From Escherichia coli (GTDB lineage: Bacteria; Pseudomonadota; Gammaproteobacteria; Enterobacterales; Enterobacteriaceae), in the NCBI RefSeq assembly GCF_050920415.1, contig NZ_CP169309.1: 64,000 bases of DNA, one strand, 5' to 3'. The notes below the pieces were generated by a model. That model had not been told where the DNA came from and ran no database searches. It saw only the letters and a list, made by a program, of their open reading frames with translations. Both the position numbers and the translations under genes were made by a program. Shown here one piece after another: positions 3,295 through 10,700 of the stretch. Position 1 is the stretch's first letter. The number at the start of each line of letters is the position of its first letter.

Positions 3295-4850
3295 TTATTT
3301 AATATCTTTCACGCGCATACCGTTGATCTGTTCATCCGTGATGGTATTACCCGCTTTAAAGTAATCAACCACCGCGTGATAAACGTAATAACCGCCCGTC
3401 GTATTGCGCGCTTTACCCTCGGTAAACGCGGTAAAACCATCTCCACCATCAGCAAGGAAACTCTGAGTGGCAATGTGGTAAACCGTCGCATCTTCAATCG
3501 GTTTGCCATTCAAAGTCAGTGAGATAACCCGCTGACCAACCGGCTTGCTGCTGTCGTACTTCATTTCCAGGCCTTTCGATACCTGTAAAACGCCATTACT
3601 TAAACTTGCGCCGTGTTCCATCAAACTGCGTAATTGTTTACCCGTGAGATCCATCGTCACCAGTTCGTTGGGGAACGGGAAGGTACTGATGACGCCACCC
3701 ATCGTAATTGCACCCGCCGGGATCTCATTGCGAATCCCGCCAGAGTTGGTTAACGCCAACTGGGTATTTTTACCCGCCGCTGCCAGCAAAGCGTCCGCCG
3801 CCAGGTTCCCGAGGGAAGCCGATTCACCATAGGCACGTTTTAATTCAACCGGCGATTGCGCCACCGTTTGCTGACTTCATCCAGCTTTTTGTTCCAACTA
3901 TCAATCACCTGTTTCGTTTGCGGATCGGGCTTCCACTCATCGGCGTAAAGGGTTTTAAGCTCGAAGTTTTTCACCGTAAAAGTGTGCGGCTTCTCTTTGT
4001 AGTCGAGAACCAGTTTACCCACATCAATCCCGCCGCTGTCAGTGGAGAGGATTAACGTATTGCCGACTTTAATCGGTTCCGGCGTACCCACATGTGCATG
4101 CCCGGTGATCAAAATATCCAGCCCTTTCACCTGACTTGCCGTCTGAATATCTTTATCCAGCGCGCGACGCACATCTGTGCCTCCCATACTGGACTGGCGG
4201 GCCGGAACACCTTCGTGGATCAGGGCAACGGTCAAATCAACCTTGCCTTTGAGTTCATCGATATAACGTTGTAGCCATTTAATTTCATCACGCGCCTCAA
4301 TACCCACTCGCGTTGCCGCAGATACCGTATCATTAAAGGCAAATACACCGTGCAAACCAATCACGCCAATTTTCACGCCGTCTTTTTCAATGATGGTATA
4401 GGGCTTATCCCAGAATGATTTACTGCTGTTCTGATAAAAAACATTACCCTGCACAATCGGGAATTTTGCCTGACTCAGCTGTAATAACGTATTGTCCCAG
4501 CCGTGATCAAATTCATGATTACCTATAGTGACCGCATCGAACGGCATGGTATTCATAATATCGATAATCGCCTTGCCTTTAGTCAGGCTGCTGATATACG
4601 GCCCGGTAAAATAGTCACCCGCATCAAAAAACCAGGTCGCTTTGTTTTTAGCTTTTTCTTGTTTAACAAGCGTAGTGATATTTGCCCAGCCGCCAATATC
4701 TCGTTTACCGTCAGCAATCCACGGCACTTTATAAGGCTCTACATGTGCATGGAGGTCGTTGGTATAAATGATGGTGACATCTTTGGCGCAAGCCCAAAAC
4801 GGCAGTGTTAATGCGATACCCGCAGCAAGCATTTTAATTTTCATAAACAA
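3295..4850 (-). pseudogene. 5'-nucleotidase / metallophosphatase family paralog disrupted by a frameshift
   Basis: Two overlapping minus-strand ORFs in different frames (3840-4850, 336 aa; 3295-3864, 189 aa). Together they align end to end with the intact paralog at 7922-9547 (N-part ...[15 protein letters not shown]; C-part [19 protein letters not shown]...). The frame break is near 3850-3865. Metallophosphatase motifs DxH, GDxxxG and GNHE are present. Confidence 0.75.
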
Positions 4851-4893
4851 TCCCTTCCAGTGAGATAAAGGATTGCTACATTACGTTCTGAAA

Positions 4894-4909
4894 GGCTTTT
4901 TTATGTGAG
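4894..4909. promoter_or_regulatory. perfect-consensus CRP-type site TGTGA-N6-TCACA in a divergent promoter region
   Basis: Sequence tTGTGAgaatacTCACAt sits between the divergent starts at 4850 (minus) and 4977 (plus). Both half-sites match the CRP consensus exactly. Confidence 0.55.
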
Positions 4910-4976
4910 AATACTCACATCCAGAGGCGATAACTGTAGGACAAAATCAACGACCTTATGAAATCGTTGGTGATAT

Positions 4977-6104
4977 ATGTCAAATCTGTTTGCGATTAAT
5001 GTCTGTAAAACGTTCGGTTGTCGAAATTTGGGATTGGCCTCATCGGAAGATTACAGTTGGCCAGACTATAAACTGGGTTTTCCGGCACTACACTGCCAGG
5101 CATGCGGAAGTTACCCCCCTTTGTTTGATGAACAACAATTTCGTGACTGGTTGTCAGTTCACATGACTACGTGTGCCATAGAAACAGGGCATTTTTGTCC
5201 ATCATGCTATTGTAAAGAAAAGATTTTTTATGGCCACAACCCGCAGGGAACACAACGCGTTCAATGCCGTTCATGCAAAAAAGTCTGGACTCCGAAACAG
5301 CAGCCAGCAAGAGAAATTACGTATCCCCAGTCCATTGAAACCGTTCAACTGTTCATGCCCTTTCAAGGAGCCAGCGCACTACAAAAGCTCTATGTTTTAG
5401 TCAGTCTTGACGCCACTCGTGGCAACATCCTTCATCTCTCCACGAATTATACGCAACATCAGACAGGAGACAGTCTGCGGTACAGTTACAGAGGCAATAC
5501 AGAACCAACTGAGCACCATAGCGATATTGTGCAGAGGGTAGATATGCGTGAAGCGCAATTCTTGCGCCGGAGCCAGTTCGATGAAATTCAGTATGGCAGT
5601 GCTGTGCTCAAGCGCAATGGCAAGGGAGCCATACTACGCCCGGTTATCACGGCACACGGGCATTTCAGAATACTGAAAATCCGCTTTCCACATGTCAAAA
5701 CGCATATCATTTCACACGAATGTTTTCTGAGAGGCGCAATTATTACAGCCTGGGCAGATCAGTTCCGCCAACAACAAGGCGAACTTTGGTTCGTAGAAGA
5801 AGAAATCAGCGACCGTAACGCTGATATTCCCTGGCATTTTCAGGGAACGACATACCATGGTTGGTGGCAAAATCAGTGGCAACGCTGGGGGCAGGGGAAT
5901 AACAGCAAGATGGTCTGCCTGCTCACAGGAGTCTCCTTAGAAAGGGGCGCAAATGTTTCTCTGGCAACCAGTCGTTGCTTTATCACATGGCTGACAGACC
6001 AACACGACTTTACCCAAAGCGCGTTATTATCCGCAGGTCGCGTAACGAAAATGCTGACCTCACTGGCGTTAAAATACAATGAATCGCTCAATCCATCTTG
6101 TTAG
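4977..6104 (+). CDS. hypothetical cysteine-rich protein (multiple CxxC pairs, possible zinc-ribbon N-terminus); function unknown
   Basis: 375-aa ORF with no signal peptide. N-terminal 100 residues carry C10/C15, C40/C43, C74/C77/C79 and C97/C100 (HCQACGS..., CPSCYC..., CRSCKKVW). The C-terminal part is Trp-rich. I do not recognise the family. Confidence 0.65.
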   Translation: MSNLFAINVCKTFGCRNLGLASSEDYSWPDYKLGFPALHCQACGSYPPLFDEQQFRDWLSVHMTTCAIETGHFCPSCYCKEKIFYGHNPQGTQRVQCRSCKKVWTPKQQPAREITYPQSIETVQLFMPFQGASALQKLYVLVSLDATRGNILHLSTNYTQHQTGDSLRYSYRGNTEPTEHHSDIVQRVDMREAQFLRRSQFDEIQYGSAVLKRNGKGAILRPVITAHGHFRILKIRFPHVKTHIISHECFLRGAIITAWADQFRQQQGELWFVEEEISDRNADIPWHFQGTTYHGWWQNQWQRWGQGNNSKMVCLLTGVSLERGANVSLATSRCFITWLTDQHDFTQSALLSAGRVTKMLTSLALKYNESLNPSC

Positions 6105-6222
6105 TCAATACACTCGACAAACGACCATAAATTAATGGGATCACTATTTCTCATTTAATTAAATATATGAATGTATGACTGAAAAATATAATCACAGTCA
6201 ATGTTTAATTAATAACATTATT

Positions 6223-6238
6223 TGTTACTAAGATCACA
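6223..6238. promoter_or_regulatory. CRP-like site (TGTTA-N6-TCACA, one mismatch) upstream of the nucleotidase/tsx-like gene set
   Basis: tTGTTActaagaTCACAt lies about 95 bp upstream of the 6334 start in an AT-rich 229-bp leader. Confidence 0.3.
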
Positions 6239-6333
6239 TAATACTTTCCTGACCTATGCTTACATAAAAATAAGACACGGAGTTCCTTTTATTTAAATAA
6301 TTCAACCAATGTAACAACCCCTATCAAGGAGGG

Positions 6334-7887
6334 ATGATGAGAACTGTATTTACGACTTTATCAGTCATATTCAGCGTGATGTTTTCTCACAGTATACTAG
6401 CTCAGGACGTTACTATTTATTATACGAATGATATTCACGCACATGTCAATCCGGCAAAAATTCCCGCTGTTGATAAGAACAGACTTGTAGGTGGTATGGC
6501 TAATATCGCAGGCATCGTTAATGAAGCGAAGAAAAAAAACAAAGATGTCTTTTTCTTTGATGCAGGCGACTATTTTACCGGTCCGTATATCAGTACCCTG
6601 ACCAAAGGTGAAGCTATTATTGATATCATGAACACCATGCCCTTTGATGCGGTGTCCGTTGGTAATCACGAGTTCGATCACGGCGTGCCCAATATGGTAT
6701 CTCAGTTATCAAAAGCAAAATTCCCCATTCTGCTGGGAAATATTTACTACACCGATACAAATAAACCAGTTTGGGATCATCCGTGGACCATTATCGAAAA
6801 AGATGGTTTAAAGATTGGTGTGATTGGATTGCATGGTGCATTCGCTTTCTATGATACAGTCGCGGCAAAAGCACGTGAAGGCGTAGAAGCCAGAGACGAA
6901 ATTAAATATTTAAATAAAGCACTTGCAGAATTAAAAGGTAAAGTCGACATTACCGTTTTGCTAATTCACGAAGGTGTTCCGGCGCGTCAATCAAGCTTTG
7001 GTAGTAAAGATGTGGAGCGGCTACTACAGGCAGATATTGAGACAGCTAAAAAAGTGAATGGTGTTGATGTCTTAATTACCGGTCACGCACATGTCGGAAC
7101 ACCGCAACCAATAAAAGTTAATAACACATTAATTGTATCTACCGATGCATACGGCACCGACATCGGAAAACTTGTGCTTGATTACAATCCGAAAACAAAG
7201 AAAATTGATAGTTATAATGGTGAGTTAATCACCATCTTTGCAGATCAATTTAAACCTGACACCATCGTTCAAAATACTATCGATAAATGGAGCGTAAAAC
7301 TTAACAAAATAACACAGGAAGTTGTCGGCCATTCTCCCGTAGTTTTAACACGTGAGTATGGCAGTTCTTCTTCTACCGGTAACCTTATTCTGGATGCAAT
7401 GATGGAAAAAACACCTGATGCCATTGCCGGATTTCAAAATAGCGGTGGGATGCGAGCTGATTTTCCTAAAGGTGATATCACACTGGGAGATGTTATTAGC
7501 ACATTCCCCTTTAATAATGACCTCATCGAGATGGATTTGACGGGCCGCGATCTCAAATCGTTGATGACGCATGCAACCAATCTAACTAACGGTGTGTTAC
7601 AGGTTTCAAAAAGCGTTGCGGTTGTCTATGACAGCAAAAAACCACTCAACCAACGGTTAATCTCTTTCACCATTAACGGCAAACCCGTGGAAGATAATCA
7701 AACATATCGTATTGCCACGCACTCCTTTTGTGCCAGTGGTGGTGACGGTTTTGAAGCATTTTTGAATGGAAAAAATGTGAAGACGATACCGGGAACAACC
7801 TCGGCGGAATCAATCATCGATTATTTCAAAAATCATAAACCTGTCACCCCAGACTTAACTAAACGAGTCATGGACGTCGCCAAATAA
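6334..7887 (+). CDS. periplasmic bifunctional metallophosphatase / 5'-nucleotidase family protein (UshA-like)
   Basis: 517-aa ORF with a signal peptide (MMRTVFTTLSVIFSVMFSHSILA|QD), metallophosphatase motifs (TNDIHAH, FDAGDYFTG, GNHEFD) and a 5'-nucleotidase-type C-terminal domain. Strong Shine-Dalgarno (aaggaggg) precedes the start. Confidence 0.85.
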   Translation: MMRTVFTTLSVIFSVMFSHSILAQDVTIYYTNDIHAHVNPAKIPAVDKNRLVGGMANIAGIVNEAKKKNKDVFFFDAGDYFTGPYISTLTKGEAIIDIMNTMPFDAVSVGNHEFDHGVPNMVSQLSKAKFPILLGNIYYTDTNKPVWDHPWTIIEKDGLKIGVIGLHGAFAFYDTVAAKAREGVEARDEIKYLNKALAELKGKVDITVLLIHEGVPARQSSFGSKDVERLLQADIETAKKVNGVDVLITGHAHVGTPQPIKVNNTLIVSTDAYGTDIGKLVLDYNPKTKKIDSYNGELITIFADQFKPDTIVQNTIDKWSVKLNKITQEVVGHSPVVLTREYGSSSSTGNLILDAMMEKTPDAIAGFQNSGGMRADFPKGDITLGDVISTFPFNNDLIEMDLTGRDLKSLMTHATNLTNGVLQVSKSVAVVYDSKKPLNQRLISFTINGKPVEDNQTYRIATHSFCASGGDGFEAFLNGKNVKTIPGTTSAESIIDYFKNHKPVTPDLTKRVMDVAK

Positions 7888-7921
7888 AATATCATTTATC
7901 AGTCTATATATTTAACAAGGA

Positions 7922-9547
7922 ATGCGAATGAAAACAGTGCAGCGTACTTTACTTGCCGCAACATTGCTGACTATTTTTTCGGTCTCAGTCATGGCGCAGG
8001 ATGGCACGATTATTTATACAAATGATCTTCACACTCATGTGGATTCTTATAAAGTGCCGTATATCGCAGACGGAAAACGCGACATTGGCGGCTTTGCCAA
8101 TATATCTACTTTAGTAAAACAAGAGAAAGCGAAAAATAAAGCCACCTTTTATTTTGATGCTGGAGACTATTTCACCGGCCCTTATATCAGCAGTCTGACA
8201 AAGGGCGAAGCAATAATTGACATTATGAATACCATGCCTTTTGACGCAGTATCAATCGGCAATCATGAGTTTGACCATGGCTGGGATAATGCCCTGCGAC
8301 AATTAAGCAAAGCGAATTTTCCTGTTTTATTGGGCAATGTTTATCATAAAGAGAGTGAGAAACCCTTCTGGAACAAGCCCTACACCATCCTGGAAAAAGA
8401 TGGCATCAAGATTGGTATTATTGGGCTACACGGCGTATTTGCATTTAATGATACGGTCTCGGAGCTCTCTCTCCAGGGACTCGATAATGACAATAATAAC
8501 CGCTTTGATAAATCTTCCGAGACCCTTAAGAATCAGGGGATTGAAGCACGTGATGAAGTGAAGTATTTGCAGCATTATATCGACGAGTTACGTGATAAGG
8601 TTGACCTCACTGTGGCGCTGGTTCATGAAGGCGTTCCGGCGCGTCAGTCCAGCATTGGCAATACAGATGTTAGACGCGCTCTTGATAAAGATATTCAAAC
8701 CGCTAGCAAGGTGAAAGGATTGGATATTCTGATTACCGGGCATGCCCACGTCGGAACGCCAGAACCAATCAAAGTCGGCAACACCTTAATCCTTTCGACT
8801 GATAGTGGCGGTATCGATATTGGTAAATTAGTCCTTGATGTCAACCCTACAGCTCGTACCCATAAAATGAAGAGCTTTGAGCTGAAAACAGTTTATGCCG
8901 ATGAATGGATACCCGATCCAACGACACAAAAAGTTATCAATGGCTGGAATAAAAAACTGGCGGATATTGTACGCCAACCAGTGGGTGAATCATCGATTGT
9001 ATTAACTCGCGCCTATGGTGAGTCATCGCAACTAGGCAACCTGTTTACCGATGCAATGCTTGTCGCTGCTCCGACTGCACAGATTGCATTGATAAACTCC
9101 GGCAGCTTACGTGCGGATATAAATGCAGGCACGATTACCTTTGGCGACATTACCAGTACATTCCCCTTCAAGAATGAACTTACTGAAATGGATCTCAGCG
9201 GTAAGGATCTGCGTAACCTACTGGAACACGGGGCATCGCTTACCAATGGCATCCTGCAAATGTCAAAAGGCGCAGAAATGCGCTATACCCCGCAGAAACC
9301 AGTAGGTCAGCGCATAGTATCTTTTAAAATTAATGGTGAAGAGATCGTTGATACGAATATTTACCATGTTGCAACAACGACTTTCCTTGCACTGGGGGGC
9401 GATGGTTTTCTGGCATTCAAAGAAGGGAAAAATGTTCAGGTCCGCGCCAGAAATAACATGTCCGATGTCGTGATCGATTATTTGAAGAAAGGCCACAAGA
9501 TTACGCCTGCACAGGTAAATGAAATGCGGGTGGACGTTAGCAAATAA
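7922..9547 (+). CDS. periplasmic bifunctional metallophosphatase / 5'-nucleotidase family protein, second paralog
   Basis: 541-aa ORF with a signal peptide (…VSVMA|QDG) and the same motif set. It is about 80% identical by eye to the frameshifted copy at 3295-4850 and carries an extra low-complexity insert (LQGLDNDNNNRFDKSSETLKNQ). Confidence 0.85.
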   Translation: MRMKTVQRTLLAATLLTIFSVSVMAQDGTIIYTNDLHTHVDSYKVPYIADGKRDIGGFANISTLVKQEKAKNKATFYFDAGDYFTGPYISSLTKGEAIIDIMNTMPFDAVSIGNHEFDHGWDNALRQLSKANFPVLLGNVYHKESEKPFWNKPYTILEKDGIKIGIIGLHGVFAFNDTVSELSLQGLDNDNNNRFDKSSETLKNQGIEARDEVKYLQHYIDELRDKVDLTVALVHEGVPARQSSIGNTDVRRALDKDIQTASKVKGLDILITGHAHVGTPEPIKVGNTLILSTDSGGIDIGKLVLDVNPTARTHKMKSFELKTVYADEWIPDPTTQKVINGWNKKLADIVRQPVGESSIVLTRAYGESSQLGNLFTDAMLVAAPTAQIALINSGSLRADINAGTITFGDITSTFPFKNELTEMDLSGKDLRNLLEHGASLTNGILQMSKGAEMRYTPQKPVGQRIVSFKINGEEIVDTNIYHVATTTFLALGGDGFLAFKEGKNVQVRARNNMSDVVIDYLKKGHKITPAQVNEMRVDVSK

Positions 9548-9557
9548 TAAAAAATTA

Positions 9558-9592
9558 TAATGCCATTCATTCACTGAATGGCATTATTTTTC
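9558..9592 (+). terminator. rho-independent terminator-like hairpin after the second nucleotidase gene
   Basis: Inverted repeat aatgccattca / tgaatggcatt with loop ttcac, followed by a T-run (tattttt). Confidence 0.55.
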
Positions 9593-9624
9593 TCTAAATC
9601 AACAATAAATAATGAGATATATTT

Positions 9625-10485
9625 ATGTGTATAAAAAAGCACGGGATAGCTTTATCGATTCTATTAATACCTTGCATTGGAAACGCTCAGGAAATTAAAA
9701 GTGAGGAAGGCTGGTTACATCAAAGCTTGAATGTCATTGGTCGCACAGACTCTCGCTTTGGCCCAAGGCTGACTAACGACCTCTACCCTGAATATACTGT
9801 AGCAGGAAGAAAAGACTGGTTTGATTTTTATGGTTATGTTGATCTACCAAAATTCTTTGGCGTCGGCAGTCACTATGATGTTGGGATCTGGGATGAGGGC
9901 TCACCACTATTTACGGAAATAGAACCTCGGTTTTCCATTGACAAATTGACCGGATTAAATCTTGCGTTCGGCCCTTTTAAAGAATGGTTCATTGCAAACA
10001 ACTATGTCTATGATATGGGTGACAACCAGTCATCCCGGCAAAGTACATGGTATATGGGGCTTGGTACAGATATCGACACGGGTCTACCAATTAAGCTTTC
10101 TGCCAATATATACACCAAGTATCAGTGGCAAAACTATGGTGCCGCTAATGAAAATGAATGGGACGGATATCGATTCAAAATAAAATATAGCATTCCTCTT
10201 ACCCATTTATTCGGAGGGCGATTGGTATACAATAGTTTTACTAACTTTGATTTTGGCTCCGATCTTGCGGACAAATCACACAATAATAAACGAACCAGTA
10301 ATGCTATTGCTTCAAGCCATATCCTTTCCCTGCTATATGAACACTGGAAATTTGCATTTACACTACGTTATTTTCACAACGGTGGACAATGGAATGCTGG
10401 GGAGAAAGTTAACTTCGGAGATGGTCCATTTGAATTAAAAAACACAGGATGGGGAACCTATACTACTATTGGTTATCAATTTTAA
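9625..10485 (+). CDS. Tsx-family outer-membrane nucleoside-specific channel paralog
   Basis: 286-aa ORF with a signal peptide (…IGNA|QE). It shares long blocks with E. coli Tsx as I remember it ([90 protein letters not shown]) and ends in an aromatic residue. Confidence 0.85.
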
Positions 10486-10630
10486 ATCAGGTGATGTTTT
10501 AGATATTTTTACTTAATGCCATTTTGTAATTGTCATAAATAACTTCACCATTCACACTGTGAATTCATCGCTCAACACAAAAGCCCCTTATTACCGGGGC
10601 ACTGACCAAAGGCAAAATGACAATCAATCA

Positions 10631-10688
10631 CCACCTCCGCAGGAGGTGGTTTAGAGGTGACAACAAAAGCTGGCAACTGCCAGCTTTT
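10631..10688. terminator. two adjacent hairpins forming a probable bidirectional terminator between the tsx-like gene and metL
   Basis: ccacctccgcaggaggtgg (10631-10649) and aaaagctggcaactgccagctttt (10665-10688). On the minus strand the second is a GC stem followed by a T-run immediately after the metL stop. Confidence 0.55.
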
Positions 10689-10700
10689 GTTCAATAATCA

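Follow-up and report, generated by a model that had tools for sequence, protein, structure and literature searches.

Nucleotidase island between metF and metL

The locus lies in a low-GC island of an E. coli chromosome, which is flanked by metF and metL and occupies positions 3295-10485 of the window, that is, of the whole 64-kb stretch of DNA that was analysed. The GC content of the island is 0.41-0.44, versus 0.51 for the whole window. Three paralogous 5'-nucleotidase genes, here called P1, P2 and P3, share the island with a gene for a Cys-rich hypothetical protein and a gene for a Tsx-like nucleoside channel (Table 1). Signal peptides are present on all three nucleotidases. P1 is a frameshifted pseudogene in the present strain and is intact in UTI89; its intact ortholog is c4898 (PDB 3IVD/3IVE). 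P3 carries a segment that neither of the other two has. RefSeq places its start at 7928, which gives a protein of 539 aa (WP_001355354.1, ‘bifunctional metallophosphatase/5'-nucleotidase’). A signal peptide is followed by an N-terminal metallophosphatase domain and a C-terminal 5'-nucleotidase domain.

Table 1. Features of the island and of the P3 gene, in positions of the window
Feature	Position	Strand	Basis or remark
P1, paralog without the insert	3295..4844	-	ORF list, RefSeq annotation
Cys-rich hypothetical protein, 375 aa, island member	4977..6104	+	divergent from P1
P2, paralog without the insert, 517 aa	6334..7887	+	ORF list, alignment, Pfam
P3, insert-bearing 5'-nucleotidase paralog	7922..9547	+	ORF list, 541 aa
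Insert of P3, 23 codons E181-K203, ELSLQGLDNDNNNRFDKSSETLK	8462..8530	+	protein and DNA alignments; hhalign; dN/dS
Insert core G186-S198, GLDN[DN]x[NS][NH]RF[DS]KS	8477..8515	+	ortholog alignments
Tsx-like nucleoside channel gene, outer membrane	9625..10485	+	PF03502, NF011686

Judged by its sequence and modelled fold, P3 is a member of the 5'-nucleotidase superfamily (UshA-CD73) and, within it, of the c4898/3IVD subfamily. It scores 127.2 bits with PF02872 (cut-off 23.6) and 43.5 bits with PF00149 (cut-off 21.5), and phmmer matches it to 3IVD over residues 24-538 with E = 1.4e-226. The dimetal and His-Asp motifs DxH, GDxx, GNHE(F)D, H(E)G and GHxH align to those of CD73. The catalytic and metal residues D35, H37, D82, N114, H115, D118, H235, H274 and H276 are invariant in an alignment of 66 sequences. 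Invariant too are the substrate residues R363, N392, R397, F416, F488 and D494, which correspond to R354, N390, R395, F417, F500 and D506 of CD73: the two Arg bind the phosphate, the Asn and the Asp bind the ribose, and the two Phe stack on the base. The subfamily binds nucleosides, because P1, in the form of c4898, was crystallised with uridine and cytidine. P3 is not an equivalog of UshA, NadN, SoxB or CpdB, since its NCBIfam scores are below each cut-off (UshA NF007109, 151.3 against 600 bits; NadN, 121 against 436; SoxB, 148 against 550; CpdB, 99 against 486). A literature search found no relevant paper on the activity of c4898, c4896, c4895 or 3IVD, and no published kinetics for any enzyme of the c4898/3IVD subfamily.

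The Tsx-like gene scores 235 bits with PF03502 and 490 bits with NF011686 (cut-off 311). It directly adjoins P3 in 12 of the 12 insert-bearing loci examined, which are not independent samples; they show three gene orders and occupy at least four genomic sites. P3 precedes Tsx in E. coli and C. enshiensis, and Tsx precedes P3, with a gap of 22 nt, in E. albertii, Enterobacter and some Citrobacter. In one contig the two genes alone form the module. No Tsx neighbour is found in any of five stand-alone relatives that have no insert, and P2-type paralogs that lack the insert are likewise neighbours of Tsx. The same insert, ELSIQGLDNDKNNRFDKSAAALK, is found beside a Tsx that shares 85% identity with that of the window in Citrobacter enshiensis, and only 57-59% in Enterobacter and Citrobacter spp. 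The adjacency supports a common pathway. For the insert itself it is hardly informative, since insert-less P2 types flank Tsx as well and the insert stays constant over divergent Tsx proteins. With several nucleotidases beside a Tsx-like channel, the island cluster looks like a nucleotide-scavenging module.

The insert and its conservation

When the three paralogs are aligned, as proteins or as DNA, the insert shows up as one 20-codon gap (60 nt). Its flanks are strongly conserved, GLHGVFAFNDTVS before and GIEARDEVKY after. The 23 residues replace three in the paralogs (AAT and AKA; APM in the nearest outgroup), hence the net gain is 20 aa. The remaining part of the length difference between P3 (541 aa) and P2 (517 aa) is found elsewhere, chiefly in the signal peptide.

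The initial annotation had described here a low-complexity, Asn/Asp-rich segment of about 24 residues, located at 8458-8545 between conserved blocks and absent from both paralogs. The segment, its absence from the paralogs and its position between conserved blocks are borne out by the single gap of the three-paralog alignment, and the span correctly brackets the true insert at 8462-8530. The size needs amending: 23 codons stand in place of three, and as a net gain the figure of 24 does not hold. The Asn/Asp richness stands, with N or D at seven of the 23 residues. The low-complexity label falls. By default SEG is triggered by a 12-residue window with an entropy of at most 2.2 bits; the insert does not go below 2.36 bits, therefore the insert is not formally low-complexity, and other parts of P3 score lower, down to 2.23 bits.

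The insert is not a strain oddity; its conservation over several genera and the purifying selection on it are points that the initial annotation had missed. Of 5426 complete E. coli genomes, 658 have a match to P3 (95-100% identical), and all 30 sampled E. coli matches are uninterrupted and exactly 1626 nt long. Such a one-piece span in every sampled match means that the insert is no sequencing artefact. Among 120 collected homologs the insert is found in 15 sequences (P0001-P0015) of 536-539 aa, which are 74-99% identical to P3; the named sources are E. coli, E. albertii, Citrobacter and Enterobacter. It is missing from 91 of the 106 full-length homologs of this collection, so that it is not a feature of the whole family. 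A degenerate DNA pattern for the insert core matches six of about 100,000 species-representative genomes, all of them Escherichia, Citrobacter or Enterobacter. A homolog search with a 77-aa query restricted to the region around the insert returned just 20 short fragments and nothing new.

In a neighbour-joining tree, calculated with the insert columns left out, all 13 insert-bearing sequences (the mosaic P0015 apart) form one clade, sister to the homologs without the insert. One clade of insert-bearers points to a single insertion event. P0015, a P1 gene that also stands at the P1 position, contains a P3 tract of about 420 nt, the insert included. The longest exact run common to P1 and P3 does not exceed 17 nt, and for this reason gene conversion is likelier than an assembly chimera. 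The insertion arose once, in the ancestor of a small Escherichia/Citrobacter/Enterobacter clade, and its amino-acid sequence has been kept by selection from then on.

Alignments of orthologs from E. coli, E. albertii, Citrobacter, Enterobacter and one further contig define the motif ELS[LI][QK]GLDN[DN]x[NS][NH]RF[DS]KS..LK over the insert, with the core given in Table 1. The nucleotide sequence of the insert is not conserved among orthologs, which show synonymous codon differences. For six orthologs aligned by codon (15 pairwise comparisons), dN in the insert is 0.02-0.29 and dS runs from 0.15 to saturated, with 0.6 to above 3 between genera. The resulting dN/dS is 0.02-0.16 in the insert, where dS is saturated, and 0.03-0.07 in the rest of the P3 gene. 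The amino acids of the insert are under purifying selection, slightly looser than that on the enzyme core. Counted from the alignment, identity to the most distant ortholog is 61% in the insert versus 80% in the rest of the protein. No ortholog among those compared has lost or shortened the insert.

Position of the insert and its possible role

The AlphaFold2 model of P3 has a mean pLDDT of 86.5 and superposes on 3IVD with TM 0.88/0.95 and an rmsd of 2.2 Å (Foldseek); it is nearer to the closed forms of CD73 and UshA than to the open ones. The modelled insert stands between helix 172-178 and strand 207-209. Residues 182-204 have pLDDT <50, with a short helix at 184-187 followed by coil. The loop that holds the insert, between the anchors L169 and I207, was compared with its counterparts in 223 domains from 150 diverse family representatives (50% identity clusters, profile-aligned). 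At 37 residues it is the longest of the 224 domains, the other 223 having 13-33 residues with a mode of 16 (136 domains). A few independent expansions to 21-33 residues show that the site tolerates changes of length. The low pLDDT and the variable loop length across the family agree with the surface loop proposed in the initial annotation.

Profile alignment places the insert with respect to human CD73, a homolog that is only about 23-28% identical and whose sequence was checked against PDB chains. In hhalign L184 of CD73 pairs with S180 of P3 and S185 with T201, and P3 residues 181-200 are insert states. In closed CD73 the backbone carbonyl of Leu184 is 3.9 Å from N6 of the adenine (PMC8677862). 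By homology to this Leu184 loop, the insert would begin on the N-domain side of the interface, at the nucleobase-pocket rim.

The insert is accompanied by changes elsewhere in the protein. Fifteen positions outside it are diagnostic for the insert-bearing clade. Five of these, I391, S395, K417, T486 and L491, are at most three residues from the six C-domain substrate residues, where 1.2 would be expected (P = 0.004, in a post hoc test designed after the data had been seen). I391 and S395 flank N392 and R397, and S395 is Gly in 90 of the 91 other homologs. K417 directly follows the stacking F416, and T486 and L491 flank the stacking F488. At the C-terminal base of the loop P3 has Asn204, where 73 of the 91 other homologs have Arg. 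This pattern of substitutions suggests that the nucleobase pocket was remodelled along with the insertion.

Hence, we suggest that the insert is a flexible flap located at the base-pocket rim and the domain interface, which alters the substrate range or the closing behaviour of P3; we give this reading a probability of about one half. The insert-bearing loop on the surface of the metallophosphatase N-domain is the counterpart of CD73 residues 177-190. On domain closure this loop moves down to the nucleobase bound in the C-terminal domain. The insert, placed directly after the equivalent of CD73 Leu184, would then form the flap at the pocket rim. Combined with the clade substitutions next to the Phe-Phe base clamp and to the ribose/phosphate loop, the flap may make P3 distinct, so that its substrate range or closing would differ from those of the two or three paralogs encoded alongside. 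We infer that the insert contacts or gates the substrate and in this way changes specificity. An effect on substrate specificity, raised in the initial annotation, is thus plausible, with indirect support from the Leu184 placement and from the clade substitutions near base and ribose contacts.

There is a lesser, though real, chance that the insert is a tolerated spacer loop of little function, which originated by chance and is constrained merely for solubility, folding or avoidance of clashes. The range of 13-33 aa at this site across the family, reached by several independent expansions, fits such a loop, as do the modelled disorder, the faster divergence of the insert than of the remaining protein and the lack of a match to any known domain or motif. 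However, with synonymous sites saturated, the dN/dS of 0.02-0.16 lies well away from neutrality, and nine positions of the 13-residue core are invariant or nearly so over four genera. The retention of the full-length insert in every ortholog compared and its co-occurrence with changes beside substrate-binding residues also argue against a mere spacer.

The DNDNNNRFD core resembles the DxDxDG calcium loop of EF-hands, and calcium binding would stabilise the loop or give P3 a calcium response. A model for this is the nine-residue calcium loop of the galactose-binding protein, which is also periplasmic. The EF-hand rule covers 12 residues: positions 1, 3, 5 and 9 supply oxygen ligands, position 6 is Gly, position 8 is aliphatic, and an acidic residue at position 12 acts as a bidentate ligand. 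Positions 1, 3, 5 and 9 of the core fit (D, D/N, N/S and D/S). Position 4 varies, N or H takes the place of the usual Gly at position 6, and a hydrophobic Phe is invariant at position 8. This Phe is, however, unusual at position 8, and position 12 is S/A/G instead of acidic. The insert peptide has no EF-hand or other meaningful Pfam match, even at E = 10, and no match in the PDB. AlphaFold2 gives no ordered loop, and metal-free Asn/Asp-rich turns are common. We consider calcium binding rather unlikely.

A stronger proposal, that the insert is a calcium- or partner-dependent gate which couples P3 to Tsx or limits P3 to a distinct substrate class, is in our judgement distinctly unlikely. The substrate class imagined here could be, e.g., a dinucleotide or a modified nucleotide that the other paralogs cannot process. 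If true, such a gate would explain why the P3-Tsx pair is the sole element kept in every version of the cluster.

The initial annotation also raised partner specificity. The insert would then be a docking element, chiefly for the periplasmic face of the Tsx-like channel, and would couple hydrolysis to the flux of nucleosides or nucleotides. The constant neighbourhood of P3 and Tsx, including the module of these two genes alone, and the absence of Tsx beside the five stand-alone insert-less relatives are in line with docking. Adjacency, however, indicates a common pathway and not contact, P2 types without the insert flank Tsx too, and the 12 loci are not independent; an identical insert is, moreover, paired with quite different Tsx proteins. 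A fused chain (mature P3, a (G4S)x10 linker and mature Tsx) was modelled by AlphaFold2 with a part-paired alignment. The insert has pLDDT <50 in this model and gives no sign of docking, in what is a weak test, the Tsx barrel itself being poorly modelled (pLDDT 25-80). The partner claim has the constant Tsx neighbourhood as its sole support, and docking is very unlikely.

Finally, it is barely credible that the insert is a DNA-level feature, such as a mobile-element scar, a hairpin or a regulatory site, that is translated incidentally: a perfect 9-bp inverted repeat (8455-8463 / 8516-8524) encloses most of it and two weak promoter-like matches lie within it, but the repeat is missing from the UTI89 allele and all other orthologs, chance alone would give an estimated 0.1 or so of such repeats per 240 nt, the promoter-like matches number 11 against 14.2 in shuffled sequence, and GC content is 0.43 in the insert and 0.44 in the gene. 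We rejected the repeat as a chance feature that orthologs do not keep. The promoter and terminator scan found nothing within the insert above the shuffled expectation, Rfam gave no match in 3400-10700, and searches of the 64-kb window for related DNA or peptide (blastn-short, tblastn) returned chance matches only. Since the nucleotides are not conserved, no Rfam or promoter signal is present and the window holds no related sequence, a role at the DNA or RNA level is ruled out.

Significance and comparison with known nucleotidases

The insert is ordinary paralog divergence, unremarkable beyond its family; the practical stakes are small and no long-standing question is touched. It is a clean small case of paralogs diverging by a loop insertion at a loop that faces the nucleobase. 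Of the complete E. coli genomes, about 12% carry the island; they include two extra-intestinal pathogens, UTI89 and UM146, as well as 83972, a strain from asymptomatic bacteriuria. Should the insert alter specificity, P3 is the first paralog to test for what the island scavenges. P0015, a P1 with a P3 tract, is a natural swap construct.

The same island is GR 31 of the APEC strain BEN2908, with a Tsx-like gene and UshA-like ORFs of 1620, 1551 and 1554 bp, and the authors of this genome paper of 2026 propose a nucleoside processing and transport system (PMC12928451). Their account does not mention the insert or tell the paralogs apart, and the proposal is made without experiments on them (PMC12928451). 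A literature search for loop insertions in UshA-like enzymes gave nothing specific.

UshA is likewise a periplasmic 5'-nucleotidase of the same fold, with a rotation of the domains between open and closed forms. However, it is only about 21% identical to P3, which reaches 151 bits against the 600-bit equivalog cut-off. CD73 shares with P3 the two-domain fold, the dimetal site, the Phe-Phe base clamp and the homologous loop 177-190. This loop has 14 residues in CD73 and 37 in P3. CD73 is a GPI-anchored dimer, whereas P3 is predicted to be a soluble periplasmic protein with a signal peptide.

The closest known system, and the nearest with a solved structure, is c4898 of E. coli CFT073 (‘putative 5'-nucleotidase’; 3IVD with uridine, 3IVE with cytidine), the P1 ortholog, which belongs to the same subfamily and the same island. 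It is about 74% identical to P3 when the sequences are aligned and 66% when Foldseek aligns the two, and it has every catalytic and substrate-binding residue in common with P3. Unlike P3, c4898 has a short loop (…DTVSAATRVGIEARDE…) with no insert, and it carries P, N/Q/H and D/T/P in place of K417, T486 and L491 of P3.

The island and its P3-Tsx junction

The three neighbouring 5'-nucleotidase-family paralogs (P1, P2 and P3) and their companions form an island of low GC content, which occupies the metF/metL interval in 658 of the 5426 complete E. coli genomes; Citrobacter enshiensis carries it in that interval too. E. albertii and Enterobacter have it at other sites with changed gene order, in some cases with a fourth paralog. 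There the order of P3 and the Tsx-like nucleoside channel gene is reversed and the two are separated by a gap of 22 nt. In the window, the hairpin between them is terminator-like on both strands, so that in E. coli the two genes may not form a simple transcription unit.

In NZ_CP169399.1, the RefSeq entry for the Tsx-like gene is flagged partial ('missing C-terminus'). However, its reading frame of 286 codons is intact and identical to that in the window, and the encoded protein is 98% identical to that of UTI89. The flag is probably an annotation quirk.

Features of the island and of related loci (L001, L007, L008 and L018 are loci examined outside the window)
Feature	Location	Strand	Description
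Five-gene island	window, about 3295-10485		GC 0.41-0.44 vs 0.51 for the window
P1	window 3295-4844	minus	frameshifted pseudogene in the NZ_CP169309.1 strain
Cys-rich hypothetical protein	window 4977-6104	plus	375 aa
P3-Tsx hairpin	window 9557-9587		AT-rich, 13-bp stem, between P3 stop and Tsx-like start codons
Tsx-like gene	window 9625-10485	plus	
Tsx-like gene	L001 10704-11564		NZ_CP169399.1
Cys-rich homologs	L007 4583-5851; L008 4597-5865		422 aa each
P0015 gene	L018 3398-5011		E. coli GCA_001520995.1; P1 gene in P1 position, with P3 tract

A P1/P3 mosaic gene

The P3 tract of the P0015 gene covers about 420 nt (nt 301-720) and includes the insert, the extra loop of P3. An assembly chimera might produce such a mosaic, but the longest exact run common to P1 and P3 does not exceed 17 nt, which favours the other explanation: the gene looks like the product of gene conversion between the inverted paralogs. 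Separately, we note that the L018 contig ends approximately at the expected start of the shared tract in P3, as estimated from coordinates.

The Cys-rich protein and paralog P1

The sole domain match of the Cys-rich protein is a faint one, to an IS1 InsA zinc-ribbon-like domain. Its gene is divergent to a nucleotidase of the P1/P3 family: the partner is P1-type in the window, Enterobacter and Escherichia sp. MOD1, and in a Cronobacter genome and a metagenome contig it belongs to the nearest insert-lacking relatives of P3. The protein may be a regulator.

The reading frame of P1 shifts past …KKLDEV in the NZ_CP169309.1 strain, whereas in UTI89 the gene is intact. Its ortholog c4898 is structurally characterized, with uridine or cytidine as the ligand (PDB 3IVD/3IVE).
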